Sequence record: OW849071.1
DNA: 64,000 bases
Direction: 5' to 3' (one strand)
Source: a plasmid
Part shown: positions 9,765-55,900 of the stretch, piece by piece
Layout of the letters: every line of letters begins with the position of its first letter
Position numbering within the stretch: the first letter of the stretch is position 1
Position numbers and translations under genes: made by a program
Notes under the pieces: generated by a model
Seen by the model: only the letters and a program-made list of their open reading frames with translations
The model's database searches: none
What the model was told of the DNA's origin: nothing

Positions 9765-10863
9765 CACCGTTGAACGTCACATCCGGGGCAAATGGGCCTG
9801 CGACAGCTGCGAGACGTTGATCCAGGCACCGGTGCCACCGCAGGTGATCGACAAAGGCATCCCCACCGCTGGCCTGCTGGCCCAGGTGCTGGTGGCCAAG
9901 TATGCCGACCATCTGCCGCTGTACCGTCAGGAACGCATGTTCGGCCGTGCCGGCCTGGAAATCCCGCGCTCCACCCTGGCCGAATGGGTGGGTGCCTGTG
10001 GTGTGCAGTTGCAGCCGCTGGTGGATGCGTTGAGAAATACTCTGCTGGAACACAGTGTTCTGCATGCCGATGAAACCCCGGTCAGCATGCTGGCCCCGGG
10101 CAAGAAGAAAACCCACAAGGCCTACGTCTGGGCCTACTGCACCACACCGTTTGCCGACCTGAAGGCAGCTATTTACGACTTCGCACCCAGCCGTGCAGGC
10201 GAACACGCCCGAACCTTCCTGGGTGACTGGCGGGGCAAGCTGGTCTGTGATGATTACGCTGGCTACAAGGCCGGGTTCGGCAACGGCATTACCGAAATCG
10301 GCTGTATGGCCCACGCCCGGCGCAAGTTCTATGACCTGCACGAGGCCAACAAGAGCGAATTGGCGGCCAAGGCCTTGGAATACATCGGTGGACTCTACGA
10401 GATCGAGCGGGAAACCAAAGATCTGCCACCGGATATGCGGCGGGAAATCCGGCAAACCAAAGCCAAACCCCTTGCCGATGCGCTGCATCAGTGGATGCTG
10501 GCCCATCGCCAGAAAGTGCCGGATGGCTCCGGCACGGCCAAAGCCCTGGATTACAGCCTCAAACGTTGGGAAGCGCTGACGCGCTACCTGGACGATGGCG
10601 CTGTGCCCATCGACAACAACTGGGTGGAAAACCAGATCCGACCCTGGGCGCTGGGGCGCAGCAATTGGCTGTTTGCGGGTTCACTGCGCAGTGGTCAACG
10701 TGCGGCTGCGGTCATGACCCTAATACAGTCAGCGAAGCTGAATCGGCATGATCCCTATGCCTACCTGAAGGATGTGCTGACTCGCCTGCCGACACAGAAG
10801 AACAACGCCATCGACGAGCTATTGCCCCACAACTGGAAACCGGCCATACCTAACAAGGTGTAG
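9765..10863 (+). pseudogene. IS66-family transposase (TnpC-like), N-terminally truncated by IS26
   Basis: ...CDSCETLIQAPVPPQVIDKGIPTAGLLAQVLVAKYADHLPLYRQERMF...HADETP...DNNWVENQIRPWALGRSNWLFAGS are typical IS66 TnpC motifs; the ORF begins exactly at the IS26 boundary. Confidence 0.75.
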
Positions 10864-42028: not shown

Positions 42029-42303
42029 AATTACCTCAATTAGAGAGAGTTATGTGCCTGGCTATTGCTACAGGTCATGACAAATGCATAGCCCTGCATC
42101 ACATATTCAGTTATTCGACTGCATTTTTTCTCTGAGGGTTGCGCCAATGTATTGCCAGTCTCTGTATTGCTCTGCCGTTAGTACCTTTTTATCCGTGCTG
42201 AAAGTGACCCGGGATGTAGTGGGAGATACATCCTGATGCAGGAGGGGTTGCTGGCAACATTGATTCTGTTCTTTTTCCATCATTTATCCTTTTCCTGTCT
42301 GAC

Positions 42304-43293
42304 TTACAAAAATACGCAGTTACGTTTACGCCACATCAGGTAGCCATAGTTCTTGCGGGTGTTGGGCGGATTTTTGCCGGCCTCCCAGCGCATCACGCTG
42401 CGTCCAAGCGGATGGCACTGACCACTGTCCGGATACATGTTCACCATCTGATAGCGCCAGCGTTCTTTCGGGATGATCGGGGAGGGATATTCGTAACAGA
42501 CTGCCTTGTCCTTCCCGATACTCTCCATAATTTGTCCCTGCCGGTGGAGCTTGAAGGCCATACGCTCACTGACCAGTACCGACGACTGCAGCGGGCTGGA
42601 CTCATTACTGACCTGGCCGTTAAACGGGTAAAGTGAGCCATGGCTTCCACCACACCAGAAGAGGACATCCAGAGGCATATGGAATGCACTGGCCAGCGCA
42701 TCCGCTGCGCAGGCGCCCTGCGCGATGGGGTTGGCAAACAGGATCGCTTCCGGATTCAGAATGGTGGTGAGGCTGCTGTCCACCCAGGTCGGGTCAATCT
42801 CGGACAGATAGGCTATATCCATGTCTCCGCCTTCCAGACAGCCTGCCGAAGTGATGATGTTCAGCCAGTACGTCAGCGGGTACTTGTACCAATGAACGTG
42901 ATAGAAGGCGCCGTTCACCTGCTTGTCGTCCTTTCTCGCGGTCCCCATGCCGGTCTTGCCGAGATTGATACTGAAGCCCCCCAGATTGACCATACAGCCA
43001 GGCGAACGGCTAACGTCCGTCATGGCCATCGGCTCCCAGTACCCGATGGCCAGTCCGGGACGAACAAAAAGCGGTGGCGGAGCCGGACACAGCTGCAGGG
43101 GACTGCCGGGATTGCTGGTATCAGGCAGGTCGCCTTTACCAACCTGCACGCTGCCGAGCGACAGAGGGAAGATGCAGCGCCAGCACACATCGGTGATCGG
43201 GTTAACAAACCGGCCCTCACAGGAGGGGTCTGCGGCGGCGCGGCCACTGAACGTTGAGAACGCGATGCAGATTAAAAAAAACATGGCTTTCAT
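42304..43293 (-). CDS. traU: TraU pilus assembly/DNA transfer protein
   Basis: 329-aa Cys-rich periplasmic protein homologous to F TraU. Confidence 0.9.
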   Translation of the reverse strand: MKAMFFLICIAFSTFSGRAAADPSCEGRFVNPITDVCWRCIFPLSLGSVQVGKGDLPDTSNPGSPLQLCPAPPPLFVRPGLAIGYWEPMAMTDVSRSPGCMVNLGGFSINLGKTGMGTARKDDKQVNGAFYHVHWYKYPLTYWLNIITSAGCLEGGDMDIAYLSEIDPTWVDSSLTTILNPEAILFANPIAQGACAADALASAFHMPLDVLFWCGGSHGSLYPFNGQVSNESSPLQSSVLVSERMAFKLHRQGQIMESIGKDKAVCYEYPSPIIPKERWRYQMVNMYPDSGQCHPLGRSVMRWEAGKNPPNTRKNYGYLMWRKRNCVFL

Positions 43294-43691
43294 TCGTCAG
43301 TTTTCTCCCTGAGAACAAGACGGAGGGCATCGATTTTATTGCGGACCTTTTCCCGTGTAGAGTCTTCGGCGCCCTCCATCCCGGCCCACACCATCAGGGA
43401 CAGGCAGTCGAAGAGGTAAAGCTGGCGACGGTATGAATCCCTGTTCGTCTGGCGAACGGCGGACAGTGCATCGAGTTCACAAGTCATTTCATCGATAACC
43501 TTTTCACTGTTGTATCTCAGCCAGCGGTACAGCTTCTCGTTATCGGTCCTGAGACGCTCAACCTCTCTCTCCAGCCAGCTTTCTCTTGTACTGAGTTCCC
43601 GTATGACATTCTCCTGCTTACGGATGGTGGACCACATTAGCGTCAGCAAGAGCATCGTGAGCAGGATTATTAAGGCCAGTATCATCGGCAT
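43290..43691 (-). CDS. Hypothetical TM plus coiled-coil protein inserted between traW and traU (4-bp overlap with traU start)
   Basis: MPMILALIILLTMLLLTLMWSTI then heptad-rich ...ESWLEREVERLRTDNEKLYRWL...; no counterpart in F. Confidence 0.45.
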   Translation of the reverse strand: MPMILALIILLTMLLLTLMWSTIRKQENVIRELSTRESWLEREVERLRTDNEKLYRWLRYNSEKVIDEMTCELDALSAVRQTNRDSYRRQLYLFDCLSLMVWAGMEGAEDSTREKVRNKIDALRLVLREKTDE

Positions 43692-44361: not shown

Positions 44362-44753
44362 TACTGTTCTCCTTTCATCCGGCGGGCAATGTCGTGCTGG
44401 ATGTTGCGGGTCACATCAGGCGCGCCCTGAACCACGGCAGGTGAAACCAGAATGACCACATGATGCTGCTGCTGATACTCCGCCAGACTCTTCTCCAGCG
44501 CGTCGTTAAACCGATCAGAGAGCGCTTTGGACTGCGCCTCTGTCAGCTGCTTCTGACTCACACTGTCCATAAAGCTGTCGAGCGTCTTCTTCATATCAAA
44601 AGCCACCACCCGCGGCGTGGAGTACTCCAGAACCACGCGTGAGAGAAACGCGCTGGTTGCCAGGGCGAAAAGCACGAGAGCAACGATGACAGGTATCCGG
44701 CGAAAGGTATGAGAGGTCGTACTGACCGGTTGTTCGGTGTTGTTTTTCATCAC
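44361..44753 (-). CDS. trbI: TrbI
   Basis: 130-aa membrane-anchored protein between traC and traW. Confidence 0.7.
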   Translation of the reverse strand: MMKNNTEQPVSTTSHTFRRIPVIVALVLFALATSAFLSRVVLEYSTPRVVAFDMKKTLDSFMDSVSQKQLTEAQSKALSDRFNDALEKSLAEYQQQHHVVILVSPAVVQGAPDVTRNIQHDIARRMKGEQ

Positions 44754-47389
44754 TGTTTATCCTCCATGTCATTCACCGGTATTCGGGATTCAAGCTCTGC
44801 CATTTCGTCTTTAAAGTTGCGGCACGCCAGTCCGTATACCGCATCGTGGATATCGACCCCCTCCTGCCGGCGCGCTTGCATGTACTCAAAATCCGGGCCT
44901 TTGGAGGAGTACATCGCCCGGCTGAGCGGGTCAACGAACAGGCGGTGCCAGGAGCAGTTCGCTTCCACCTGCAGCATAAAGGAGGAGAACCACTGCTCTT
45001 TTGCCGAGCCGAAGCCGTTAATCATGTCTTTCTCCAGCTTGCTGAACTGATCCGGGTACAGCTGGTTATACTTGGCAAATTCCTTCGCTGACTGTTTCAG
45101 AATGGCCTTGTACGATGAGTTCCCCCACGCTGCACGTGCGGCGCTGGAGGCGGTCGGGGAGTCGAAGTCGACGATATTTTGCGTGATGGTGATGTATGCG
45201 CCGGTATGTCGACGCGCGGTACGGTAGCCTTTCTCGATAAACTGCCCCACTTTTCCATTCTTGAAATCAAGGAGCTTCCAGCCCTCATCGATGACGTTCA
45301 GTTTTTTCAGGCCACGCGGTGACTGATACATCCTGTTCTCGATGTAAATAATCAATGAGAACATCACCGCGATAAGCAGAGAGGGCCTCGACTCCAGACC
45401 ACCGAGCTCCAGTACCACCATCCGGGCGTCATCGTGAAGTGTTGGTTTATCTGAGTTGAAATAGTCCCCGTAGATCCCATTCACCGTGTACTGATCGAGC
45501 AGGATTATCATCTCGTCCAGACGGCCCCGGATTGTCGGGGAATCAGCATATTCATCGCTGTCCTTCGCGTCCTGTAAAAACTGCACTACGTCATCAACGC
45601 GTGCATGATTACGCTTGCTTAACCAGGCCGCCTGAACTGCCTGCAGAAGCAGACCTTCATGGACTTCATCGAGGTTGCCGTTCGGACTGGCCATCACCGA
45701 CATCTGATCGCGTATACGTTCTGCTGACATGTCAAAGTGAGCATCATCCAGCACGTTGGCGAACGGGTTAAACTTGAGGGTATCGCCATTGAGGTATACG
45801 CCCCCCATGTTTTCACACAGGGACTTATAGCCATCGCCCATGTCGAACACCCAGGCAAACCCGCCGGAGTCGAGCACACTGCGAATGAGGGGCTGAATCA
45901 GACCGGTTTTACCCGCCCCGGACGTCCCGCAGACTGCCATGTTGAAATTGGTATTGTTCATTCCCTCGTAGAACAGGTCGATGAACGCCAGCTGATTTCG
46001 GTAGGTGGGGGCCAGGAGTCCCGCCGGCGCCAGCGGGCTGTCAGCGACGATCGGCAGGAGGTTGGCCACCTGGAACGTCTCAGCCCGCTTCACCACGCCT
46101 GCCGCCTGCAGCTCTTTGAACAGGCCTTCGCCGCATTTGAACGGCATCATGGCCAGAAAATTACGCAGGTGATGGTAGCGGGCCGGGATAAGCTGGAAGC
46201 CACCCTTACGGTAACTGTTGAGCACCTGCTGCTCGGTAGCGAGAGAGGCCTCTGCGTTATCGGCGGTATACGTGGTGATATTAAAGAAGTAGGACACCAG
46301 GGAGGTCTGGTTGGTCGCCAGTCGCTGGCGGATATCGCCCCACTCCTGCATTTCCTTTATCACGTTCGGAAAGTACTTCGCGTAGGAGGTTTTGCTTTTC
46401 TTCTCCACGTCCATGAATTTCAGGTTGGCTTCGTTCTGGGTCTTCACCTGGTCCTCCACCATCAGCGTCAGCGTGATGACAAAGGGGCAGGAGATGGAGA
46501 GCTCCGGGTTCAGCAGGTTGGCGTAGTTGTCCGCATTGGACCAGAGGAAGGCCATTTCCGGATCTTTCTCCAGATGGTAGCTCGTCACCCGGGTCACGCA
46601 CTCTTTCCCGTCGCGCCCCAGGCGGCCAATTTTCAGATGACCGGCCGTGACCTTCATATCAAAGCTGTCATCGACACACTGATAGTTCAGATCCTGATAG
46701 GGGTCCAGCTTATACGGTACGCGGTACATCTCGTGCGGGTCCGGGTTAATCAGCTCACGCATCAGTTCGACCAGCCCGGCCGCATCAAGGATACGCGTCG
46801 GAATGTAAGCCCCGCCCAGTGACGCCCGCAGGATTTTTATCTGGTTCTCCATCTCCACAATTTGCGTGGCGGAGTTCTTCTTCCGGGGCACGCAGCAGGA
46901 GATGTACACGCGGTAGTTACGCAGCGTCAGGGGCAAATCCAGATTGTCCGGCAGGGGAAATTGTGTTTCCGCCGCCCGGAGATAGTAGGCGCGGGTAATG
47001 GCGTTAAACTTTTTAGCCTGTTTACCACTCCAGCGGAATTCACGCAGACCGTAGTCGATATCATTGCCGACCAGTTTGCTGGAGACCAGATGAAAACTGA
47101 CCGGGACGCCCCGGGGAAGTTTGCTGCGCAGTAAATGCTCCAGTGTGGCGACGATACTTTTATCCGCACCGGGTAAAGGACGCGCCTCAAACATAAAACC
47201 GACGGTTTTGTTATTAATAAACAGACCGGTCGCGGAATCATAATCCTTATAGGGCAGAATACGGCTGAACTGGGGGAAATTCATGCTGCCCAGCGTGTCA
47301 TTGGCTTTTGCAGATTCGTCGGGCAGCTTCAGTGCTGATACCAGTGAATTCACAGTCTGGGTGACGGCATCGATGATGTTATTACTCAT
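44750..47389 (-). CDS. traC: TraC (VirB4-like) pilus assembly ATPase
   Basis: 879 aa; Walker A GTSGAGKT. Confidence 0.95.
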   Translation of the reverse strand: MSNNIIDAVTQTVNSLVSALKLPDESAKANDTLGSMNFPQFSRILPYKDYDSATGLFINNKTVGFMFEARPLPGADKSIVATLEHLLRSKLPRGVPVSFHLVSSKLVGNDIDYGLREFRWSGKQAKKFNAITRAYYLRAAETQFPLPDNLDLPLTLRNYRVYISCCVPRKKNSATQIVEMENQIKILRASLGGAYIPTRILDAAGLVELMRELINPDPHEMYRVPYKLDPYQDLNYQCVDDSFDMKVTAGHLKIGRLGRDGKECVTRVTSYHLEKDPEMAFLWSNADNYANLLNPELSISCPFVITLTLMVEDQVKTQNEANLKFMDVEKKSKTSYAKYFPNVIKEMQEWGDIRQRLATNQTSLVSYFFNITTYTADNAEASLATEQQVLNSYRKGGFQLIPARYHHLRNFLAMMPFKCGEGLFKELQAAGVVKRAETFQVANLLPIVADSPLAPAGLLAPTYRNQLAFIDLFYEGMNNTNFNMAVCGTSGAGKTGLIQPLIRSVLDSGGFAWVFDMGDGYKSLCENMGGVYLNGDTLKFNPFANVLDDAHFDMSAERIRDQMSVMASPNGNLDEVHEGLLLQAVQAAWLSKRNHARVDDVVQFLQDAKDSDEYADSPTIRGRLDEMIILLDQYTVNGIYGDYFNSDKPTLHDDARMVVLELGGLESRPSLLIAVMFSLIIYIENRMYQSPRGLKKLNVIDEGWKLLDFKNGKVGQFIEKGYRTARRHTGAYITITQNIVDFDSPTASSAARAAWGNSSYKAILKQSAKEFAKYNQLYPDQFSKLEKDMINGFGSAKEQWFSSFMLQVEANCSWHRLFVDPLSRAMYSSKGPDFEYMQARRQEGVDIHDAVYGLACRNFKDEMAELESRIPVNDMEDKQ

Positions 47390-47460
47390 GCAGGCGTTCC
47401 TTTAAGAGCATTTCAAAATAACAAGGGTAATAAATGGCAAGAAGAATATTCACAGCCGCA

Positions 47461-47859
47461 CTAGAAACTCCTCCTTATAATGGAAAGCACAGGAATGAAA
47501 AACAATAAACACATGGAGGCGATAATCTGACCCATAAAGATCGAATCCAACAACACCTCCCCTTGCCACAAACAAATAAGCAGAGTGATAAATAATAAAA
47601 CCACATGAAAGAAAACAATCAGGAACAGAATGTTCGCTGAGAATTCGCCATCACCAACTTCCACCTCTAAGCAGAAAAAATAAAATACACACAAACTACA
47701 GATAATATAGACGCCTTCATGTCGAATACCCTGAAGGAAATCAGCAGAAAAGTCTCCTGCCAGTCCATTGTAAGTCAGTCTGGCTCCCAGATAGATGAGC
47801 CAGTAGACTGGAGGGGTAAACAAAAATCCATACTTTCGAAGAAACAGCATCATATCCAT
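47461..47859 (-). CDS. Island ORF 1: hypothetical polytopic membrane protein (132 aa)
   Basis: AT-rich; 4 predicted TM helices. Confidence 0.35.
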   Translation of the reverse strand: MDMMLFLRKYGFLFTPPVYWLIYLGARLTYNGLAGDFSADFLQGIRHEGVYIICSLCVFYFFCLEVEVGDGEFSANILFLIVFFHVVLLFITLLICLWQGEVLLDSIFMGQIIASMCLLFFIPVLSIIRRSF

Positions 47860-47866
47860 CCCCTGA

Positions 47867-48277
47867 TTATTTGCTCATATCGTTCAGTGCGTTAAGTTGT
47901 TTTTCACGTACTGCTTTAATCTCTTTTTTATCCTTGCATTCTGATGCCATCTTTTTTGCGTCACCAAAAGTTAATGTCGCTGACGAAGTCACATTATTAG
48001 TTTGAAGAGCCATCCGAAAAGCCTCACCCGCACAAGGCGCATCATGAATAATACTTTGCAGTTGTTCTGGAGTGGCGGGCTGCATATCGCGAAAATCTTC
48101 ATACTGAACAAAAAAACATCCAGCTGAAGCAAAAAAAAGAAGAACCCAAAAAATACCATATAGCAGATCAAAACGTTTCAATTCTTGCCTTTCTTTTTCA
48201 TCGGCCTTTCTTATTAAATCCCGAGAGCGCTCTTCAATTTCTTGTTGTCTTTCCATTGTTCCATCCCTACCGGTCAA
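47867..48277 (-). CDS. Island ORF 2: hypothetical membrane-anchored protein (136 aa) with a charged/coiled N-terminus
   Basis: ERQQEIEERSRDLIRKADEKERQELKRF then a TM helix. Confidence 0.35.
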   Translation of the reverse strand: MTGRDGTMERQQEIEERSRDLIRKADEKERQELKRFDLLYGIFWVLLFFASAGCFFVQYEDFRDMQPATPEQLQSIIHDAPCAGEAFRMALQTNNVTSSATLTFGDAKKMASECKDKKEIKAVREKQLNALNDMSK

Positions 48278-48298
48278 TCCAGTTTATTAATCAGCATT

Positions 48299-48754
48299 TC
48301 ATTTTGAGTTAGCTTTATATAATTCCCACTGATGGATATAGGAATAATACTGCCCACCAGGCACATTAATGATGATGCCATCACAGTCCAGTTTATTAAC
48401 AGGGCTGGTAAAAGCGCCTGTCGGCATGTTTACCTCAAGTGTCCGGCAGTCATCTTTCCAGTGTCTACCTGCTTCAAGTTCATCCATCGAAAATGAGTGA
48501 ATGGAGATAACGAACATCCCGGAAAACCCAACCACCGCTATAAGCGCACAGTATATGAATGTATCGCCTCTGTTAACTCGAAGATTGAATTTTTCAGGGA
48601 TGGCAACCATTGCCAGCGCACCGACCAAACCAATAACAAAAAGAATCAGGCATATACCGTTAAGCCATGCAACGTTATGTCCAAGTATATAGTACGCTTT
48701 CACTTTCTTATTCCTTATGCTGCATACTTTCAAATAACGTGAGATTGTTAACAC
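48299..48754 (-). CDS. Island ORF 3: hypothetical membrane protein (151 aa) with a C-terminal HWKDDCRTLE-containing domain
   Basis: Paralogous to ORF 6 (RHWKDDCRTLEVNMPTGAF vs HHWKNDCRLLETNIDKGF). Confidence 0.4.
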   Translation of the reverse strand: MLTISRYLKVCSIRNKKVKAYYILGHNVAWLNGICLILFVIGLVGALAMVAIPEKFNLRVNRGDTFIYCALIAVVGFSGMFVISIHSFSMDELEAGRHWKDDCRTLEVNMPTGAFTSPVNKLDCDGIIINVPGGQYYSYIHQWELYKANSK

Positions 48755-48769
48755 TGACCACCGGTCTTA

Positions 48770-49081
48770 CTATTCACCCGCCCCCATCCGATCAAAGTAA
48801 TAAATCAAGACATAAAACATATAAAAGATCACTGTGGCTGAAAAAAATCCCGTTATTACTGATAGCGTCAAATCAGGAGAACCGGCCCACATATTTTTAT
48901 CCATGAATACCATTAAAGAAAATAAAGCACTGAGACCTGTAAGCCCAAACAACATTAAAATATAGGCAAGCGCATCTCTTATAAAAACACCAATAATTAC
49001 ATAGCCGTAACCGCAGATAATGATTGCCATTGCAAAAAAAAGTCGAACAAAACCATCAAAACTTAACTGGTATTCAGCCAT
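48770..49081 (-). CDS. Island ORF 4: hypothetical 3-TM membrane protein (103 aa)
   Basis: Hydrophobic ORF. Confidence 0.35.
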   Translation of the reverse strand: MAEYQLSFDGFVRLFFAMAIIICGYGYVIIGVFIRDALAYILMLFGLTGLSALFSLMVFMDKNMWAGSPDLTLSVITGFFSATVIFYMFYVLIYYFDRMGAGE

Positions 49082-49300
49082 TTACCCACCCTCACTCAAT
49101 GTTTCTATCACGCTGCTCAAAGGCTCGCGGGTTTTAATTTCAATGCACTCTCCTGTATTACTTCCGTAACCTCTGCCACCACGTGCTTCGAGTACCCGTA
49201 GCATTTTTATGCAGACATCTGTATTAGGCATGGGAGTAATATCCCAAATTCCACCACCACTACTCGGCGTCATCAGCACCAGAAAAATAAAGGCATGCAT
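49082..49300 (-). CDS. Island ORF 5: small secreted protein (72 aa)
   Basis: N-terminal signal-like MHAFIFLVLMTPSSGG; two Cys. Confidence 0.3.
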   Translation of the reverse strand: MHAFIFLVLMTPSSGGGIWDITPMPNTDVCIKMLRVLEARGGRGYGSNTGECIEIKTREPLSSVIETLSEGG

Positions 49301-49379
49301 ACTTTATTGCCTCTGTTTATATATTAACGAATGAATATTTCTTTCATTGCCTCTGCGATAGTTGTTTGCTTATCGCCCC

Positions 49380-49613
49380 TTATCGCTCTGTCATAATCAG
49401 CCTTGCTGACATTTTCAATAACATCACCACACTGAAGTCTATTTTGCGCTGGAGAGAAAACCCTTTATCAATATTAGTCTCAAGCAACCGGCAGTCATTT
49501 TTCCAGTGATGAGAAAGAACTTCGGGCACTGTATTACTGTCACTAGAAAAAAGCAGGCGATAACCTGTCAATAAAAACACCAGCGCCATCGTCCATTTGA
49601 ATAATTCATCCAT
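49380..49613 (-). CDS. Island ORF 6: truncated paralog of ORF 3 (77 aa)
   Basis: Shares the HWK(N/D)DCR(L/T)LE motif and C-terminal KIDFSVV / KLDCDGII similarity. Confidence 0.35.
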   Translation of the reverse strand: MDELFKWTMALVFLLTGYRLLFSSDSNTVPEVLSHHWKNDCRLLETNIDKGFSLQRKIDFSVVMLLKMSARLIMTER

Positions 49614-49617
49614 AACG

Positions 49618-50028
49618 TTACTTACCTTCCGTACTAAGTTTATTAATCTCTGCCTTATCTCTGTATCTCACATCCATATACCGTGTTACGCCATCCGGGC
49701 AAGACCAGGCATCTTTTGCTTTAGCCAGAAACCCTGCCTGCTGCGCTTCAAATGCGGAGACTCTGCAATTTCTAAGCGTATAAATGATATTTTCTTTCCT
49801 GTTTATAATTTGTTTATATGTTGACTCAGGATCAAGAACTCCTGTTGCTGTAGTAATCATACTCACCATACACAGTATCACACTGAGGGTTTTACCCCAC
49901 CAGGATGTGATTACTCTCTGAAAAAAGGAAGACACGATTACGGCAGAACCAACAATAAGAATCAACATAAAAATATATGACGAATCTTCGCGCAAAAGCA
50001 GCCATAGATATTTCATTGAGTCAGTCAT
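49618..50028 (-). CDS. Island ORF 7: hypothetical 2-TM membrane protein with a soluble C-terminal domain (136 aa)
   Basis: AT-rich ORF immediately downstream of traV. Confidence 0.35.
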   Translation of the reverse strand: MTDSMKYLWLLLREDSSYIFMLILIVGSAVIVSSFFQRVITSWWGKTLSVILCMVSMITTATGVLDPESTYKQIINRKENIIYTLRNCRVSAFEAQQAGFLAKAKDAWSCPDGVTRYMDVRYRDKAEINKLSTEGK

Positions 50029-50159
50029 TTTTCAAATTCTTTCATTTTTCGTTATCGACGTTCATTTCACACGCTACCGCCCATCCCTTTCAACGCAGAG
50101 GGCACTCGTTATAATTCAGAAATGGAACACTACTGCAGCGCCAGCAATGGCGCTGTGAA

Positions 50160-50744
50160 TCAATTAAGGCGAGGCTGTCCCCACGCCGATGGTTTTACGA
50201 CAAAAAGAACCGTTGCCGGCTGGTGATATACATCATCTGAATCCACATACGGCGCTATCCACAATGACGTTGTCTCCTCCCCTTTTCTTAATGGCCGGGG
50301 ATAATTACCTGGCGGTGTTGACGGTGACGTAAACGTTGACGCCACTACTGGTAAAGACATTTTCACTACCGGCAAAGACTGGAGCCTTTTCTCGGTTTCG
50401 AAATATATTGCCTCATTCTTTGCCGTTGGATTATTTAGGTACACTGCACGTGCTCGTTCTCTCTCCGCTGCCACTCTGGCCCGGTTCAGGTTGGGTTGAG
50501 GCGGCAACGGGAACGAATTAACTGACGTGGTTCTGAAATTACCCTCAGCCAGTTGTGGCAACCCGGCCGCAGCCGGCTTTGCATCACTGCGTACCTCCTT
50601 CAGCTTCGCTTTTTCATTTGCCTGCTCCATCGTCATACAGGTATCCGACGTCGTGGCATTACATTGAAATTCGGTCTCTGTGCCCGCACACCCGGTTAAG
50701 AGCAAAGCGCTGCCCAGAGGAATTAACAGCATTAATTCCTTCAT
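50160..50744 (-). CDS. traV: TraV outer-membrane lipoprotein
   Basis: Lipobox LLTGC; Pro-rich; conserved position. Confidence 0.8.
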   Translation of the reverse strand: MKELMLLIPLGSALLLTGCAGTETEFQCNATTSDTCMTMEQANEKAKLKEVRSDAKPAAAGLPQLAEGNFRTTSVNSFPLPPQPNLNRARVAAERERARAVYLNNPTAKNEAIYFETEKRLQSLPVVKMSLPVVASTFTSPSTPPGNYPRPLRKGEETTSLWIAPYVDSDDVYHQPATVLFVVKPSAWGQPRLN

Positions 50745-50766
50745 GATATTTCTCGCTATTTATCGG

Positions 50767-51132
50767 TTATTTCTTCAGGTTCATCCTGATTTGGGTATTT
50801 TCCTTAATCGCCCGAACAAATTTATCCCCTTCATCCGGACTCATTTCATAGTAAACACGCTTAATCTGGCTGACATCAGATCGGGCTAGAATCAGCCCTG
50901 AAGAACCCGAACCAGCCTCTCCGACGACAACACCGTTTTTCCGTATGATCACCCTGCGGACAGGAGTCCGACGGAAAACCACAGCGATCCCGGTAAACAC
51001 CACCGCCATCAGCAGCCAGAGCCAGAGAATATTATGCGTATAGCTCTGGTCGATATATGCTGCATACCCTGCCGCATCCGTACTGACGGTGGTGCAGTCT
51101 TCCTGTAAAACCGGAGGCAGTGGAGCGTTCAC
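50767..51132 (-). CDS. Hypothetical membrane protein in the TraP/TrbG position
   Basis: 121-aa ORF with one TM. Confidence 0.3.
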   Translation of the reverse strand: MNAPLPPVLQEDCTTVSTDAAGYAAYIDQSYTHNILWLWLLMAVVFTGIAVVFRRTPVRRVIIRKNGVVVGEAGSGSSGLILARSDVSQIKRVYYEMSPDEGDKFVRAIKENTQIRMNLKK

Positions 51133-51183
51133 CGCATCACCATTAAGTTCTTTCGGCCCCGTGCAGTCCTGAATGACATATCC

Positions 51184-51411
51184 CTACTGCTGCACAGACT
51201 CTACGGTTTTCACCAGCGTCTGGCCGAACGTGTACGGTCCCGTCAGGAACACCAGAACAACCAGTAACATCATCATGGCCAGCGGATACACCACCGCACA
51301 CTTAACCAGCCAGTGAGCCCAGCGCAGTGCTGACAGAACAGCAGTAATGAGAGACTTAGCCATTATTTTCCCCCTGCGGCGCTGCGCCCGGAGAGAACTC
51401 ACGCGGATCAA
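51184..51411 (-). CDS. TrbD-like small membrane protein
   Basis: 75-aa hydrophobic ORF overlapping the traB start. Confidence 0.3.
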   Translation of the reverse strand: MIRVSSLRAQRRRGKIMAKSLITAVLSALRWAHWLVKCAVVYPLAMMMLLVVLVFLTGPYTFGQTLVKTVESVQQ

Positions 51412-55180: not shown

Positions 55181-55900
55181 CTATTGATTTAACAAAAAAT
55201 TAACACCATCGTTTAATATCGAAACCACATTCGATATAAACTTTCCATAACTTAGAGTATAGATCGATGACATTATGATATAGTCACGATTATCAAAGCT
55301 CAGTTCCTTTTTTATTTTACTAACTGTATTTTTTGAGGTTTGCACCCCAACACCTGTAATCTTCGAAATAGATGCATGAGAAAACCCAACCGCATACAGA
55401 TTAAAGATAGCCCAGTCAGACTTTGCTGAACGCTGAATTCTTTCGATATATCTTTGCATCTTTATAGAAAAGTCATTGTATTCCATTGAAGGATGAGGCA
55501 TCGGTTCATCTTCATTTATAAAAACCCATTTACTGTATGTATCTTCATTAATCGAGAACGTTTCAATAAAAACAGTCCAAAGTGAACCTGCCAACCAAAT
55601 ATTTTTAACAAGTACAGCAGAACCTTCTGAAAACGATTTCAGTTCTGACTGCATCAGTTCCAGTTTGATCTCCAGGGAGAGATCCAGAAACCAGCTTCCA
55701 GGTGCTCTGGGTGTATCAAATGCTCCAGTTCCACCAGATGTTAAGAAAATTTTGTCAAAGGTTGGGCTGGTGTGAATTACTTCGCCCCGGGAATCACGAA
55801 TAAAAGCAGGGCAAGATGAAATATTAAGCATCTCGCGCATAGAATGAATGGAATCTGTTTGACTGCGCACAGCAATATGACTACGATCCTTCGCACACAT
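55181..55900 (-). CDS. traJ: TraJ transfer activator
   Basis: 239-aa ORF between traM and traY with a C-terminal HTH-like region. Confidence 0.65.
   Translation of the reverse strand: MCAKDRSHIAVRSQTDSIHSMREMLNISSCPAFIRDSRGEVIHTSPTFDKIFLTSGGTGAFDTPRAPGSWFLDLSLEIKLELMQSELKSFSEGSAVLVKNIWLAGSLWTVFIETFSINEDTYSKWVFINEDEPMPHPSMEYNDFSIKMQRYIERIQRSAKSDWAIFNLYAVGFSHASISKITGVGVQTSKNTVSKIKKELSFDNRDYIIMSSIYTLSYGKFISNVVSILNDGVNFLLNQ

Follow-up and report, generated by a model that had tools for sequence, protein, structure and literature searches.

The transfer operon of the F plasmid carries, among its essential pilus genes, non-essential genes for small Tra and Trb proteins, which are mostly membrane or periplasmic proteins, are variably present, and can be lost with barely any effect on laboratory transfer. 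TraP, TraR, TrbA, TrbD, TrbE, TrbG, TrbH, TrbJ, and ArtA belong to this class, and the study of Maneewannakul and Ippen-Ihler from 1993 (cited in PMC5102898) is reportedly an example of the work showing that such proteins are dispensable. One of them, TraR, is a DksA-like protein that binds RNA polymerase and is reported to tune transcription toward tolerance of envelope stress during assembly of the type IV secretion system (T4SS). In F itself, traR stands alone between traV and traC. Here we analysed the corresponding traV-traC interval of another plasmid (sequence record OW849071.1), which lies at positions 47390-50159 of a stretch of 64,000 nucleotides, referred to below as the window, and holds seven small open reading frames (ORFs).

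Two further described systems are close to this locus. In Escherichia coli IncFII plasmids of the R100/R1 type, the interval at the same position, after traV and an operon polarity suppressor (ops) element and before traC, is likewise AT-rich and likewise holds small ORFs of unknown function. The ops/JUMPStart element is in turn known from the RfaH anti-termination of long operons of horizontal origin, among them F tra, hly, rfa/waa, and kps. In the F tra operon, ops lies downstream of traV and expression is RfaH-dependent; when rfaH is deleted, the distal tra genes are expressed 4-8 fold less, which inhibition of Rho reverses, and conjugation drops ~28,000-fold (PMC13596475).

A preliminary description of the interval had taken it for an unusual, horizontally acquired island that had replaced traR. 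We find instead that the block is the ordinary, conserved traV-traC interval of IncFII(K) plasmids. We propose that it represents the IncFII(K) version of a lineage-typical variable accessory-gene slot in the F-like tra operon, an account which, taken whole with its claims on slot, expression, and function, we give about an even chance of being correct.

Results

The block is what IncFII(K) plasmids ordinarily carry between traV and traC

The interval of 2770 nt has a G+C content (GC) of 0.404, compared with 0.546 for traC, 0.508 for traV, 0.571 for traB, and 0.526 for the whole window. The pooled GC at third codon positions (GC3) is 0.39 in the island ORFs versus 0.67 in 13 core tra genes; since the contrast is also present at synonymous sites, it is not merely an effect of hydrophobic amino-acid content. 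The borders of the interval are traV (50160..50744, minus strand), which encodes the outer-membrane lipoprotein of the T4SS (Pfam TraV, E-value 1.8e-14), and traC (44750..47389, minus strand), which encodes the T4SS ATPase; both are annotated in an identical RefSeq record. Between them lie the seven ORFs, named A to G in order of transcription, all co-oriented on the minus strand. RefSeq lists six hypothetical proteins in the block and omits ORF B. The low GC and the array of seven co-oriented small genes for envelope-type proteins were thus correctly described at the outset. By a Kyte-Doolittle scan for hydrophobic spans, A and E have 2, D has 3, F has 1, and G has 3-4, while B and C have a short N-terminal hydrophobic stretch only. 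Several of the products are therefore predicted to span the membrane at least twice, as had been claimed, although these number four (A, D, E, and G) rather than five. The signal peptide that had been proposed for one product, C, is putative.

The segment is present in 2270 plasmids of PLSDB, of which 2133 are from Klebsiella and 2203 (~97%) are typed as conjugative; 254 match at ≥99% identity, many of them at 100%. In tblastn searches against plasmids, E was found in 2462, G in 2272, and C in 3483, the last including 947 plasmids from Escherichia, 94 from Salmonella, and 93 from Shigella; of these carriers, too, ~97% are typed as conjugative. Variants of the same gene set occur in pKpQIL, in pKPN3-like plasmids, and in other FII(K) plasmids. 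The preliminary description had conceded that its interest would fall if these were the usual traV-traC ORFs of FII(K) plasmids, and this is largely what they are. The notion of an unusual, recently gained island fared no better when we compared traV-traC intervals from 24 loci (18 of them non-redundant), drawn from PLSDB and, through a scan, from the species-representative genomes of GTDB. The 18 non-redundant intervals range from 512 to 3503 nt, and GC is 0.38-0.46 in all. Since every F-like interval compared is AT-rich, even those that hold little more than traR, low GC appears to be an old property of the slot and no sign of recent acquisition.

traR is absent, and it has not been replaced

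No TraR-like ORF was detected in the block, in agreement with the preliminary description. The true TraR proteins of F and pC15-1a gave no tblastn match at E-value ≤0.1 anywhere in the window, and Pfam zf-dskA_traR matched none of the island ORFs. A six-frame scan of the window for CxxC-(15-24)-CxxC found none in 47300-50200; the sole such motif, at 9993-10067, lies in an unrelated frame of 99 codons. We also considered whether TrbD or TrbG had moved into the island, but searches with TraR, TrbD, and TrbG of F found no similarity in the window.

It was also correct that F has only traR between traV and traC. That traR has been replaced here does not follow, because homologues of the C and F families accompany traR in E. 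coli IncFII plasmids. In pC15-1a, the order is traV, traR, a 158-aa ORF, a 72-aa ORF, a 115-aa ORF, and traC, and the 158-aa ORF is YfhA in R100 (PMC2762410). ORF C is 69% identical to the 72-aa ORF (E-value 4e-37), for which UniRef gives the names YfiB and OrfH, and ORF F is 35-38% identical to the 115-aa ORF that directly precedes traC (E-values 1e-19 to 7e-19). The pC15-1a interval lacks A, B, D, E, and G. In another E. coli plasmid, pHNEP28_cfr, traR stands alongside C, a homologue of D (76% identity), and a fused E/F remnant. The two versions nevertheless differ in their make-up: in that of E. coli, traR and YfhA come first and the small ORFs number three, whereas that of Klebsiella lacks traR and YfhA and is centred on G and on the family of ORFs E and B (the E/B family, described below).

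A few shared families fill the slot in changing combinations

Across the intervals compared, the content of the slot is a mosaic from a small pool consisting of E/B, G, F, C, A, D, X67 (a soluble family of 62-83 aa), and an 81-aa ORF, to which the E. coli clade adds TraR and YfhA. In the Klebsiella clade, E forms the core of the slot, and G, wherever present, is the last gene ahead of traC. Minimal slots hold E alone (locus L022), one 92-aa E/B protein (L017), or TraR with a truncated YfhA remnant (L023).

Traces of rearrangement are preserved in several lineages. The C-terminal tail of ORF C (EPLxxxMxTLxGG) is fused onto an X67 protein in L018 (611-862, interval coordinates) and onto an E/B protein, P0349; these fusions record deletions that brought adjacent genes together in a single frame. 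In L008, L009, and L019, two copies of the conserved block that contains ops (interval positions 81 and 563) flank an X67 ORF, and a duplicated 3' end of traV precedes the second copy, which looks like the insertion of an X67 cassette via recombination at this block. In pS1-KPC2, A is absent, B is a remnant, and F is truncated, in pKpQIL most of ORF B is deleted, and some plasmids have IS903B or IS1 inside the traV-traC interval yet are typed as conjugative. Because natural variants lose them, at least A, B, and F appear dispensable for persistence as a predicted conjugative element; it is from such natural variants that dispensability is judged throughout this work.

All seven families are nonetheless under purifying selection, with ratios of nonsynonymous to synonymous substitution (dN/dS, Nei-Gojobori) below 1. 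The values are 0.38-0.46 for A, 0.26-0.30 for B among intact copies, 0.26-0.50 for D, 0.24-0.57 for E, 0.19-0.55 for F, and 0.09-0.39 for G. The most constrained island gene is C (0.07-0.20, and ~0.1 at dS up to 1.2). For comparison, traC has 0.10 against three related plasmids and traV 0.25-0.47. The reading frames stay open across plasmids that diverge by >50% in protein sequence.

A conserved ops element precedes the slot

On the minus strand, which is the sense strand, the window contains the ops element GGCGGTAGCGTG (core GGCGGTAG) at 50070-50081, the known loading site of RfaH, which matches the 12-nt consensus GGCGGTAGnnTG exactly. A search of the 64-kb window with GGCGGTAGNNTG returned this single match. 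The element ends a conserved 42-nt block, AACGAGTGCCCTCTGCGTTGAAAGGGATGGGCGGTAGCGTGT (50069..50110, minus strand). The ops block with GGCGGTAGCGTG (or a form ending in GTA; GGCGGTAGCGTA in three lineages) stands 77-97 nt after the traV stop codon in 25 of the 25 intervals displayed, F included; its conservation extends to F of E. coli and to plasmids of the R100 type. The element is an exact copy of the consensus, in the place downstream of traV known from F and in the orientation of the transcribed strand; its activity here is predicted from sequence, and the surrounding block is without an Rfam match. The start codon of the first island gene lies 41 nt downstream of ops. Because the island begins so close behind the conserved element, it is probably transcribed, by analogy with F, along with the distal tra genes by an RNA polymerase that RfaH has modified.

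Upstream of ops, directly 3' of the traV stop codon, the sequence can be read as a stem-loop, CAGCGCC-ATTGCT-GGCGCTG (50136..50155, minus strand), and a pattern scan found a terminator-like site at 50128-50149 that overlaps it. Other lineages among the loci compared (L021, L022, L003, and F) have different palindromes at this position, including GGGTGTGATTAATCACACCC and GCCGGCAATGCCGGC. The stems take the forms CAGCGCC/GGCGCTG, GGGTGTGAT/ATCACACCC, and GCCGGC/GCCGGC. Since different palindromes occupy the same place, the structure is retained while its sequence changes. Such a hairpin may serve as an RNA-stability element, a pause, or a weak terminator or attenuator before ops.

Published RNA sequencing values for pBIC1a, a pKpQIL-like plasmid, are 7-14 for the traV-traC ORFs, 11 for traC, and 22 for traV (PMC6286996). 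The ORFs are thus expressed at the level of traC, which supports the early suggestion that they would be co-expressed with the T4SS. In the same table, the values fall from 22 (traV) to 7-14 past the position of the hairpin (PMC6286996).

Seven small genes, one of them broken

ORF A (49618..50028, minus strand) encodes 136 aa, with two variable transmembrane (TM) helices followed by a soluble C-terminal domain of ~65 aa that is nearly invariant and contains two cysteines (CRVSAFEAQQAG..WSCPDGVTRY). Its homologues form 88 clusters, all from Klebsiella-group plasmids, all named 'hypothetical', and none with a Pfam domain. The 2-TM hairpin of A brought weak matches to SLATT/2TM effectors in three libraries (E-values 0.0075-0.1), namely DUF4231 of Pfam at 14.2 bits versus a cut-off of 24.7, SLATT_4 of NCBIfam at 12.5 versus 55, and 2TM of PADLOC at an E-value of 0.0075. 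We rejected this identity because the scores are far below the cut-offs and because the TM helices of the A family are variable while the soluble domain is invariant, and we treated the matches as compositional. RefSeq names the pKPN3-like variant of ORF A 'lipase chaperone' (WP_004152597.1; L006 3542-3952). Scans of Pfam and NCBIfam with ORF A of the window, which is 76% identical to this protein, gave no lipase-chaperone match, and the name seems to be an artefact of annotation, by now carried over into many records.

ORF B (49324..49613, minus strand) is a pseudogene in this plasmid. The present ORF (49380-49613) encodes 77 aa, a seeming truncation that had been noticed in the preliminary description and that we attribute to a frameshift, as a 1-nt deletion has removed one T from a T5 run at 49457-49460. 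Insertion of one T restores a 96-aa protein which is collinear with the intact homologue in L006, has a single membrane anchor, and regains the second cysteine.

ORF C (49082..49300, minus strand) encodes 72 aa with an N-terminal hydrophobic stretch and two conserved cysteines, and is the homologue of R100-type YfiB/OrfH. The ATG of ORF D directly abuts its stop codon (TAAATG), and D (48770..49081, minus strand) encodes 103 aa with three hydrophobic spans. ORF E (48299..48703, minus strand) encodes 134 aa according to RefSeq, from a GTG start after AAGGA; the mechanical ORF is 48299-48754, 151 aa. Two TM helices are followed by a C-terminal domain of ~60 aa, which in alignment reads G-R-H-W-x2-D-C..L-D-C..N-V..Y. 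ORF F (47867..48256, minus strand; 129 aa in RefSeq, 136 aa as the mechanical ORF 47867-48277) begins with a charged N-terminus, which is followed by a single TM helix and a two-cysteine C-terminal domain (ATPEQL..PCAGEAF..ASEC). ORF G (47461..47859, minus strand) encodes 132 aa with 3-4 TM helices.

Exactly two conserved cysteines lie in the non-membrane part of each of five proteins, namely A, C, E, F, and the repaired form of B. A single periplasmic module common to these five proteins, suggested by eye from a C-x3-[FL]-E...C pattern, was not upheld, as hhalign gave a probability of 0.4% for A versus E. In all 21 pairwise comparisons of family profiles, the probability was ≤3%, B and E being the only related pair.

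None of the seven proteins had a match at or above curated cut-offs in Pfam, NCBIfam, PHROGs, or PADLOC, the only PADLOC match being the weak one of A to 2TM. No exclusion-protein family was among the Pfam and NCBIfam matches of the seven ORFs, and sequence and profile searches of the PDB (profiles of A and E; C and F) found nothing. A full-text search of the literature retrieved names, expression values, and the position of ops, and no functional study of the island ORFs.

ORFs B and E define an uncurated domain family

B and E share a domain of ~60 aa. The preliminary description had paired them by the motif HWK(D/N)DCR(T/L)LE, and the relationship is real, since BLASTP of E against B gives an E-value of 1e-6, while full-length homologues of B match E at E-values of 1e-10 to 1e-14. 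Its broader view of the island as a 'paralog array' holds for this pair only, as profile-profile comparison relates none of the other families.

We define the E/B family, which is uncurated, by 1-2 TM helices followed by G-x-[HY]-[WY]-x3-C-x-L-x-E-x-N-I-x2-G-x-F-x4-N-[KR]-L-x-C-x2-[VI]-x2-N-V with both cysteines, after which there is a conserved ...Y. E has all of these features, and B has them only once its frameshift is repaired. An exhaustive search with the domain profile found 90 clusters at 50% identity with E-values ≤1e-3, 47 of them with E-values ≤1e-10, and no Pfam model covers the domain. In a word-indexed search of 5.8 billion proteins, A and E were found only in Klebsiella-group plasmids, in all cases as hypothetical proteins without a Pfam domain. 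Up to three forms of E/B paralogues occur per plasmid. In E, the loop between TM1 and TM2 has a mean of 3.0 K+R and 1.1 D+E, and both termini are net acidic; since the loop is net positive and the termini are acidic, the positive-inside rule would place the cysteine-pair domain in the periplasm.

Distant members of the family show that its position varies. In L028, a member of the family occupies the space between traB and traV in a divergent F-like operon, which links E/B to T4SS loci outside the clade studied here. The neighbours of others differ from case to case, on which basis we regard E/B as a family of plasmids and mobile elements with no single fixed position. In L035 (18-893), a distant E/B-family gene stands immediately downstream of a plasmid-borne gene for a NusG paralogue. 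The arrangement recalls F-like plasmids, in which the family directly follows the site where RfaH loads.

Other features of the window

Upstream of traV, traP (50767-51363, minus strand) contains an in-frame TAG at codon 60 (51184-51186), where intact homologues have GAG (Glu). The stop splits the 198-aa TraP into a fragment of 59 aa, from the RefSeq ATG at 51363, and an ORF of 121 aa; the mechanical ORF 51184-51411 encodes 75 aa. Because of the in-frame TAG, and because the identical RefSeq record has no traP coding sequence, traP is a pseudogene in this plasmid. Between traY and traM, at the place where F-like plasmids have traJ, there is an ORF of 239 aa (55181-55900, minus strand; L001 13882-14601) that RefSeq calls 'conjugal transfer protein TrbJ'. 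The region at 54.8-57.8 kb is also AT-rich (GC 0.34-0.45). Two further hypothetical ORFs of the operon, one of 133 aa between traW and traU (43290-43691, minus strand, GC 0.52) and one of 58 aa between traU and trbC (42107-42283, minus strand, GC 0.46), have near-normal GC, unlike the ORFs between traV and traC.

Discussion

Based on our observations, we propose the following model for the traV-traC slot. Transcription from the tra promoter would pass traV and the conserved hairpin and reach ops at 50070-50081, where RfaH of the host would load onto RNA polymerase. The RfaH-modified polymerase would then transcribe the AT-rich small ORFs and, beyond them, traC and the distal tra genes. Since polymerase modified by RfaH resists Rho termination and silencing by H-NS, AT-rich genes could be tolerated here without polarity on traC, and the placement behind ops may also be the reason for the build-up of accessory genes at this very position. 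The slot would be filled from a small common pool of families by deletion, fusion, and recombination, and in this plasmid its content amounts to six intact genes and one frameshifted gene. Of the predicted products, A, D, E, F, and G are small proteins of the inner membrane, whereas B and C are small proteins with a cysteine pair, and all of these would modulate the assembly or stability of the T4SS or the tolerance of the envelope to it. The invariant cysteine pairs, the hydrophobic spans, and the charge bias of E count in favour of a location in the envelope.

As for what the products do, we tentatively favour the view that they are accessory proteins of the inner membrane or periplasm, dispensable and produced along with the T4SS, in the manner of the non-essential small Tra and Trb products of F; we place this slightly below an even chance. 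We compare them with the F proteins as members of the same class, even though no sequence relation between the two sets was found. Several observations weigh against our account. Neither homology nor fold nor the literature ties any of the seven proteins to T4SS assembly. The AlphaFold (AF2) models are of low confidence, with a predicted local distance difference test (pLDDT) score of 62 for E and 69 for A, and Foldseek searches against the PDB yielded only helical-hairpin noise (best E-value 0.5). The ops motif taken by itself is weak, given that 15 of 100 shuffles yield one match, and although the JUMPstart motif belongs to Rfam families, cmscan of 47300-50800 at E-value ≤1 matched no Rfam family and hence no JUMPstart. 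The action of RfaH in Klebsiella FII(K) plasmids is inferred from F. Distant members of the E/B family are mostly outside T4SS operons, next to genes for ParA, resolvase, NikA/relaxase, Hha, SprT-like proteins, or PemK/MazE or HigBA-like toxin-antitoxin systems, and these contexts fit a general role in plasmid cargo or conflict equally well as a role in the T4SS.

The most serious competitor is accordingly that the ORFs are cargo or conflict genes for small envelope proteins, serving exclusion, immunity, defence, or anti-defence, for which the RfaH-protected slot would only secure expression at times of active transfer genes and which do not serve the T4SS; exclusion, immunity, and anti-defence had been raised in the preliminary description as well. 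Mosaic gain and loss and a low GC3 (0.39 against 0.67), both of which we observe, are typical of cargo genes too, and the fusion events, the expansion of E/B to as many as three copies per plasmid, the fast-evolving membrane anchors of A, its weak 2TM/SLATT-type matches in three libraries, and the toxin-antitoxin, Hha, SprT-like, and partition genes that adjoin distant E/B members in place of T4SS genes would all be at home in such a scenario. We nevertheless think it somewhat less likely than an accessory role. No PADLOC, Pfam, or NCBIfam match reached a curated cut-off, selection on the genes is purifying and not diversifying, and within F-like plasmids the genes are confined to the traB-traC block. 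On the RefSeq plasmid that shares the identical traV-traC segment, the known exclusion proteins TraS and TraT have annotated genes at other positions. Moreover, in A it is the soluble domain that is invariant and the TM hairpin that varies, the opposite of what a pore-forming 2TM effector would show.

The position of the island raises the question of whether its membrane proteins stand in for TraR by buffering envelope stress directly. TraR, TrbD, and TrbG are all without a match in the window, and minimal slots hold either TraR alone (L023) or an E/B protein alone (L022 and L017), as one might expect of alternatives; yet traR coexists with C, D, F, and a remnant of E in E. coli plasmids, so they are not alternatives, and in sequence and architecture the island proteins do not resemble TraR. 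The basis of this idea is position only, and we regard it as very improbable. Less probable still, to the point of being barely credible, is that the ORFs are non-functional filler, a decaying AT-rich spacer whose frames are kept by chance or by constraints on the mRNA. The pseudogene B, the deletions or insertion sequences found in the interval of several plasmids, and the lack of a known function for the island ORFs would fit decay, but the selection analysis already contradicts it: dN/dS is below 1 in all families and ~0.1 for C even at dS up to 1.2, frames remain open across more than 50% protein divergence with cysteines and motifs invariant, and 90 clusters at 50% identity can still be recognised by their E/B domain.

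The accessory-slot account can also be extended. E/B might be a widespread, uncurated family of plasmids and other mobile elements with an unrecognised role in conjugation-linked envelope biology, and the conserved ops block might act as a recombination anchor that makes the region downstream of ops a hot spot of cassette exchange, as is hinted at by the duplicated ops blocks and traV 3' ends around the X67 cassette of L008, L009, and L019. We consider this extension improbable. Possible roles for the E/B domain would be protection of the donor envelope or discrimination of mating partners or competing plasmids.

Much of what is described here was already known in kind, as the block is present and annotated in thousands of records. 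What is modestly new is the E/B domain family, with its ~90 clusters and no Pfam entry, and the observation that the slot lies directly behind ops. The block is backbone, and the known plasticity of F-like tra operons together with control by ops and RfaH suffices to explain it; that the slot starts right after ops would explain how AT-rich genes are tolerated inside an essential operon. IncFII(K) plasmids such as pKpQIL are main carriers of carbapenem resistance, and ~2.7 kb of their transfer operon encodes uncharacterised proteins, of which one, B, is dead in the plasmid studied here.

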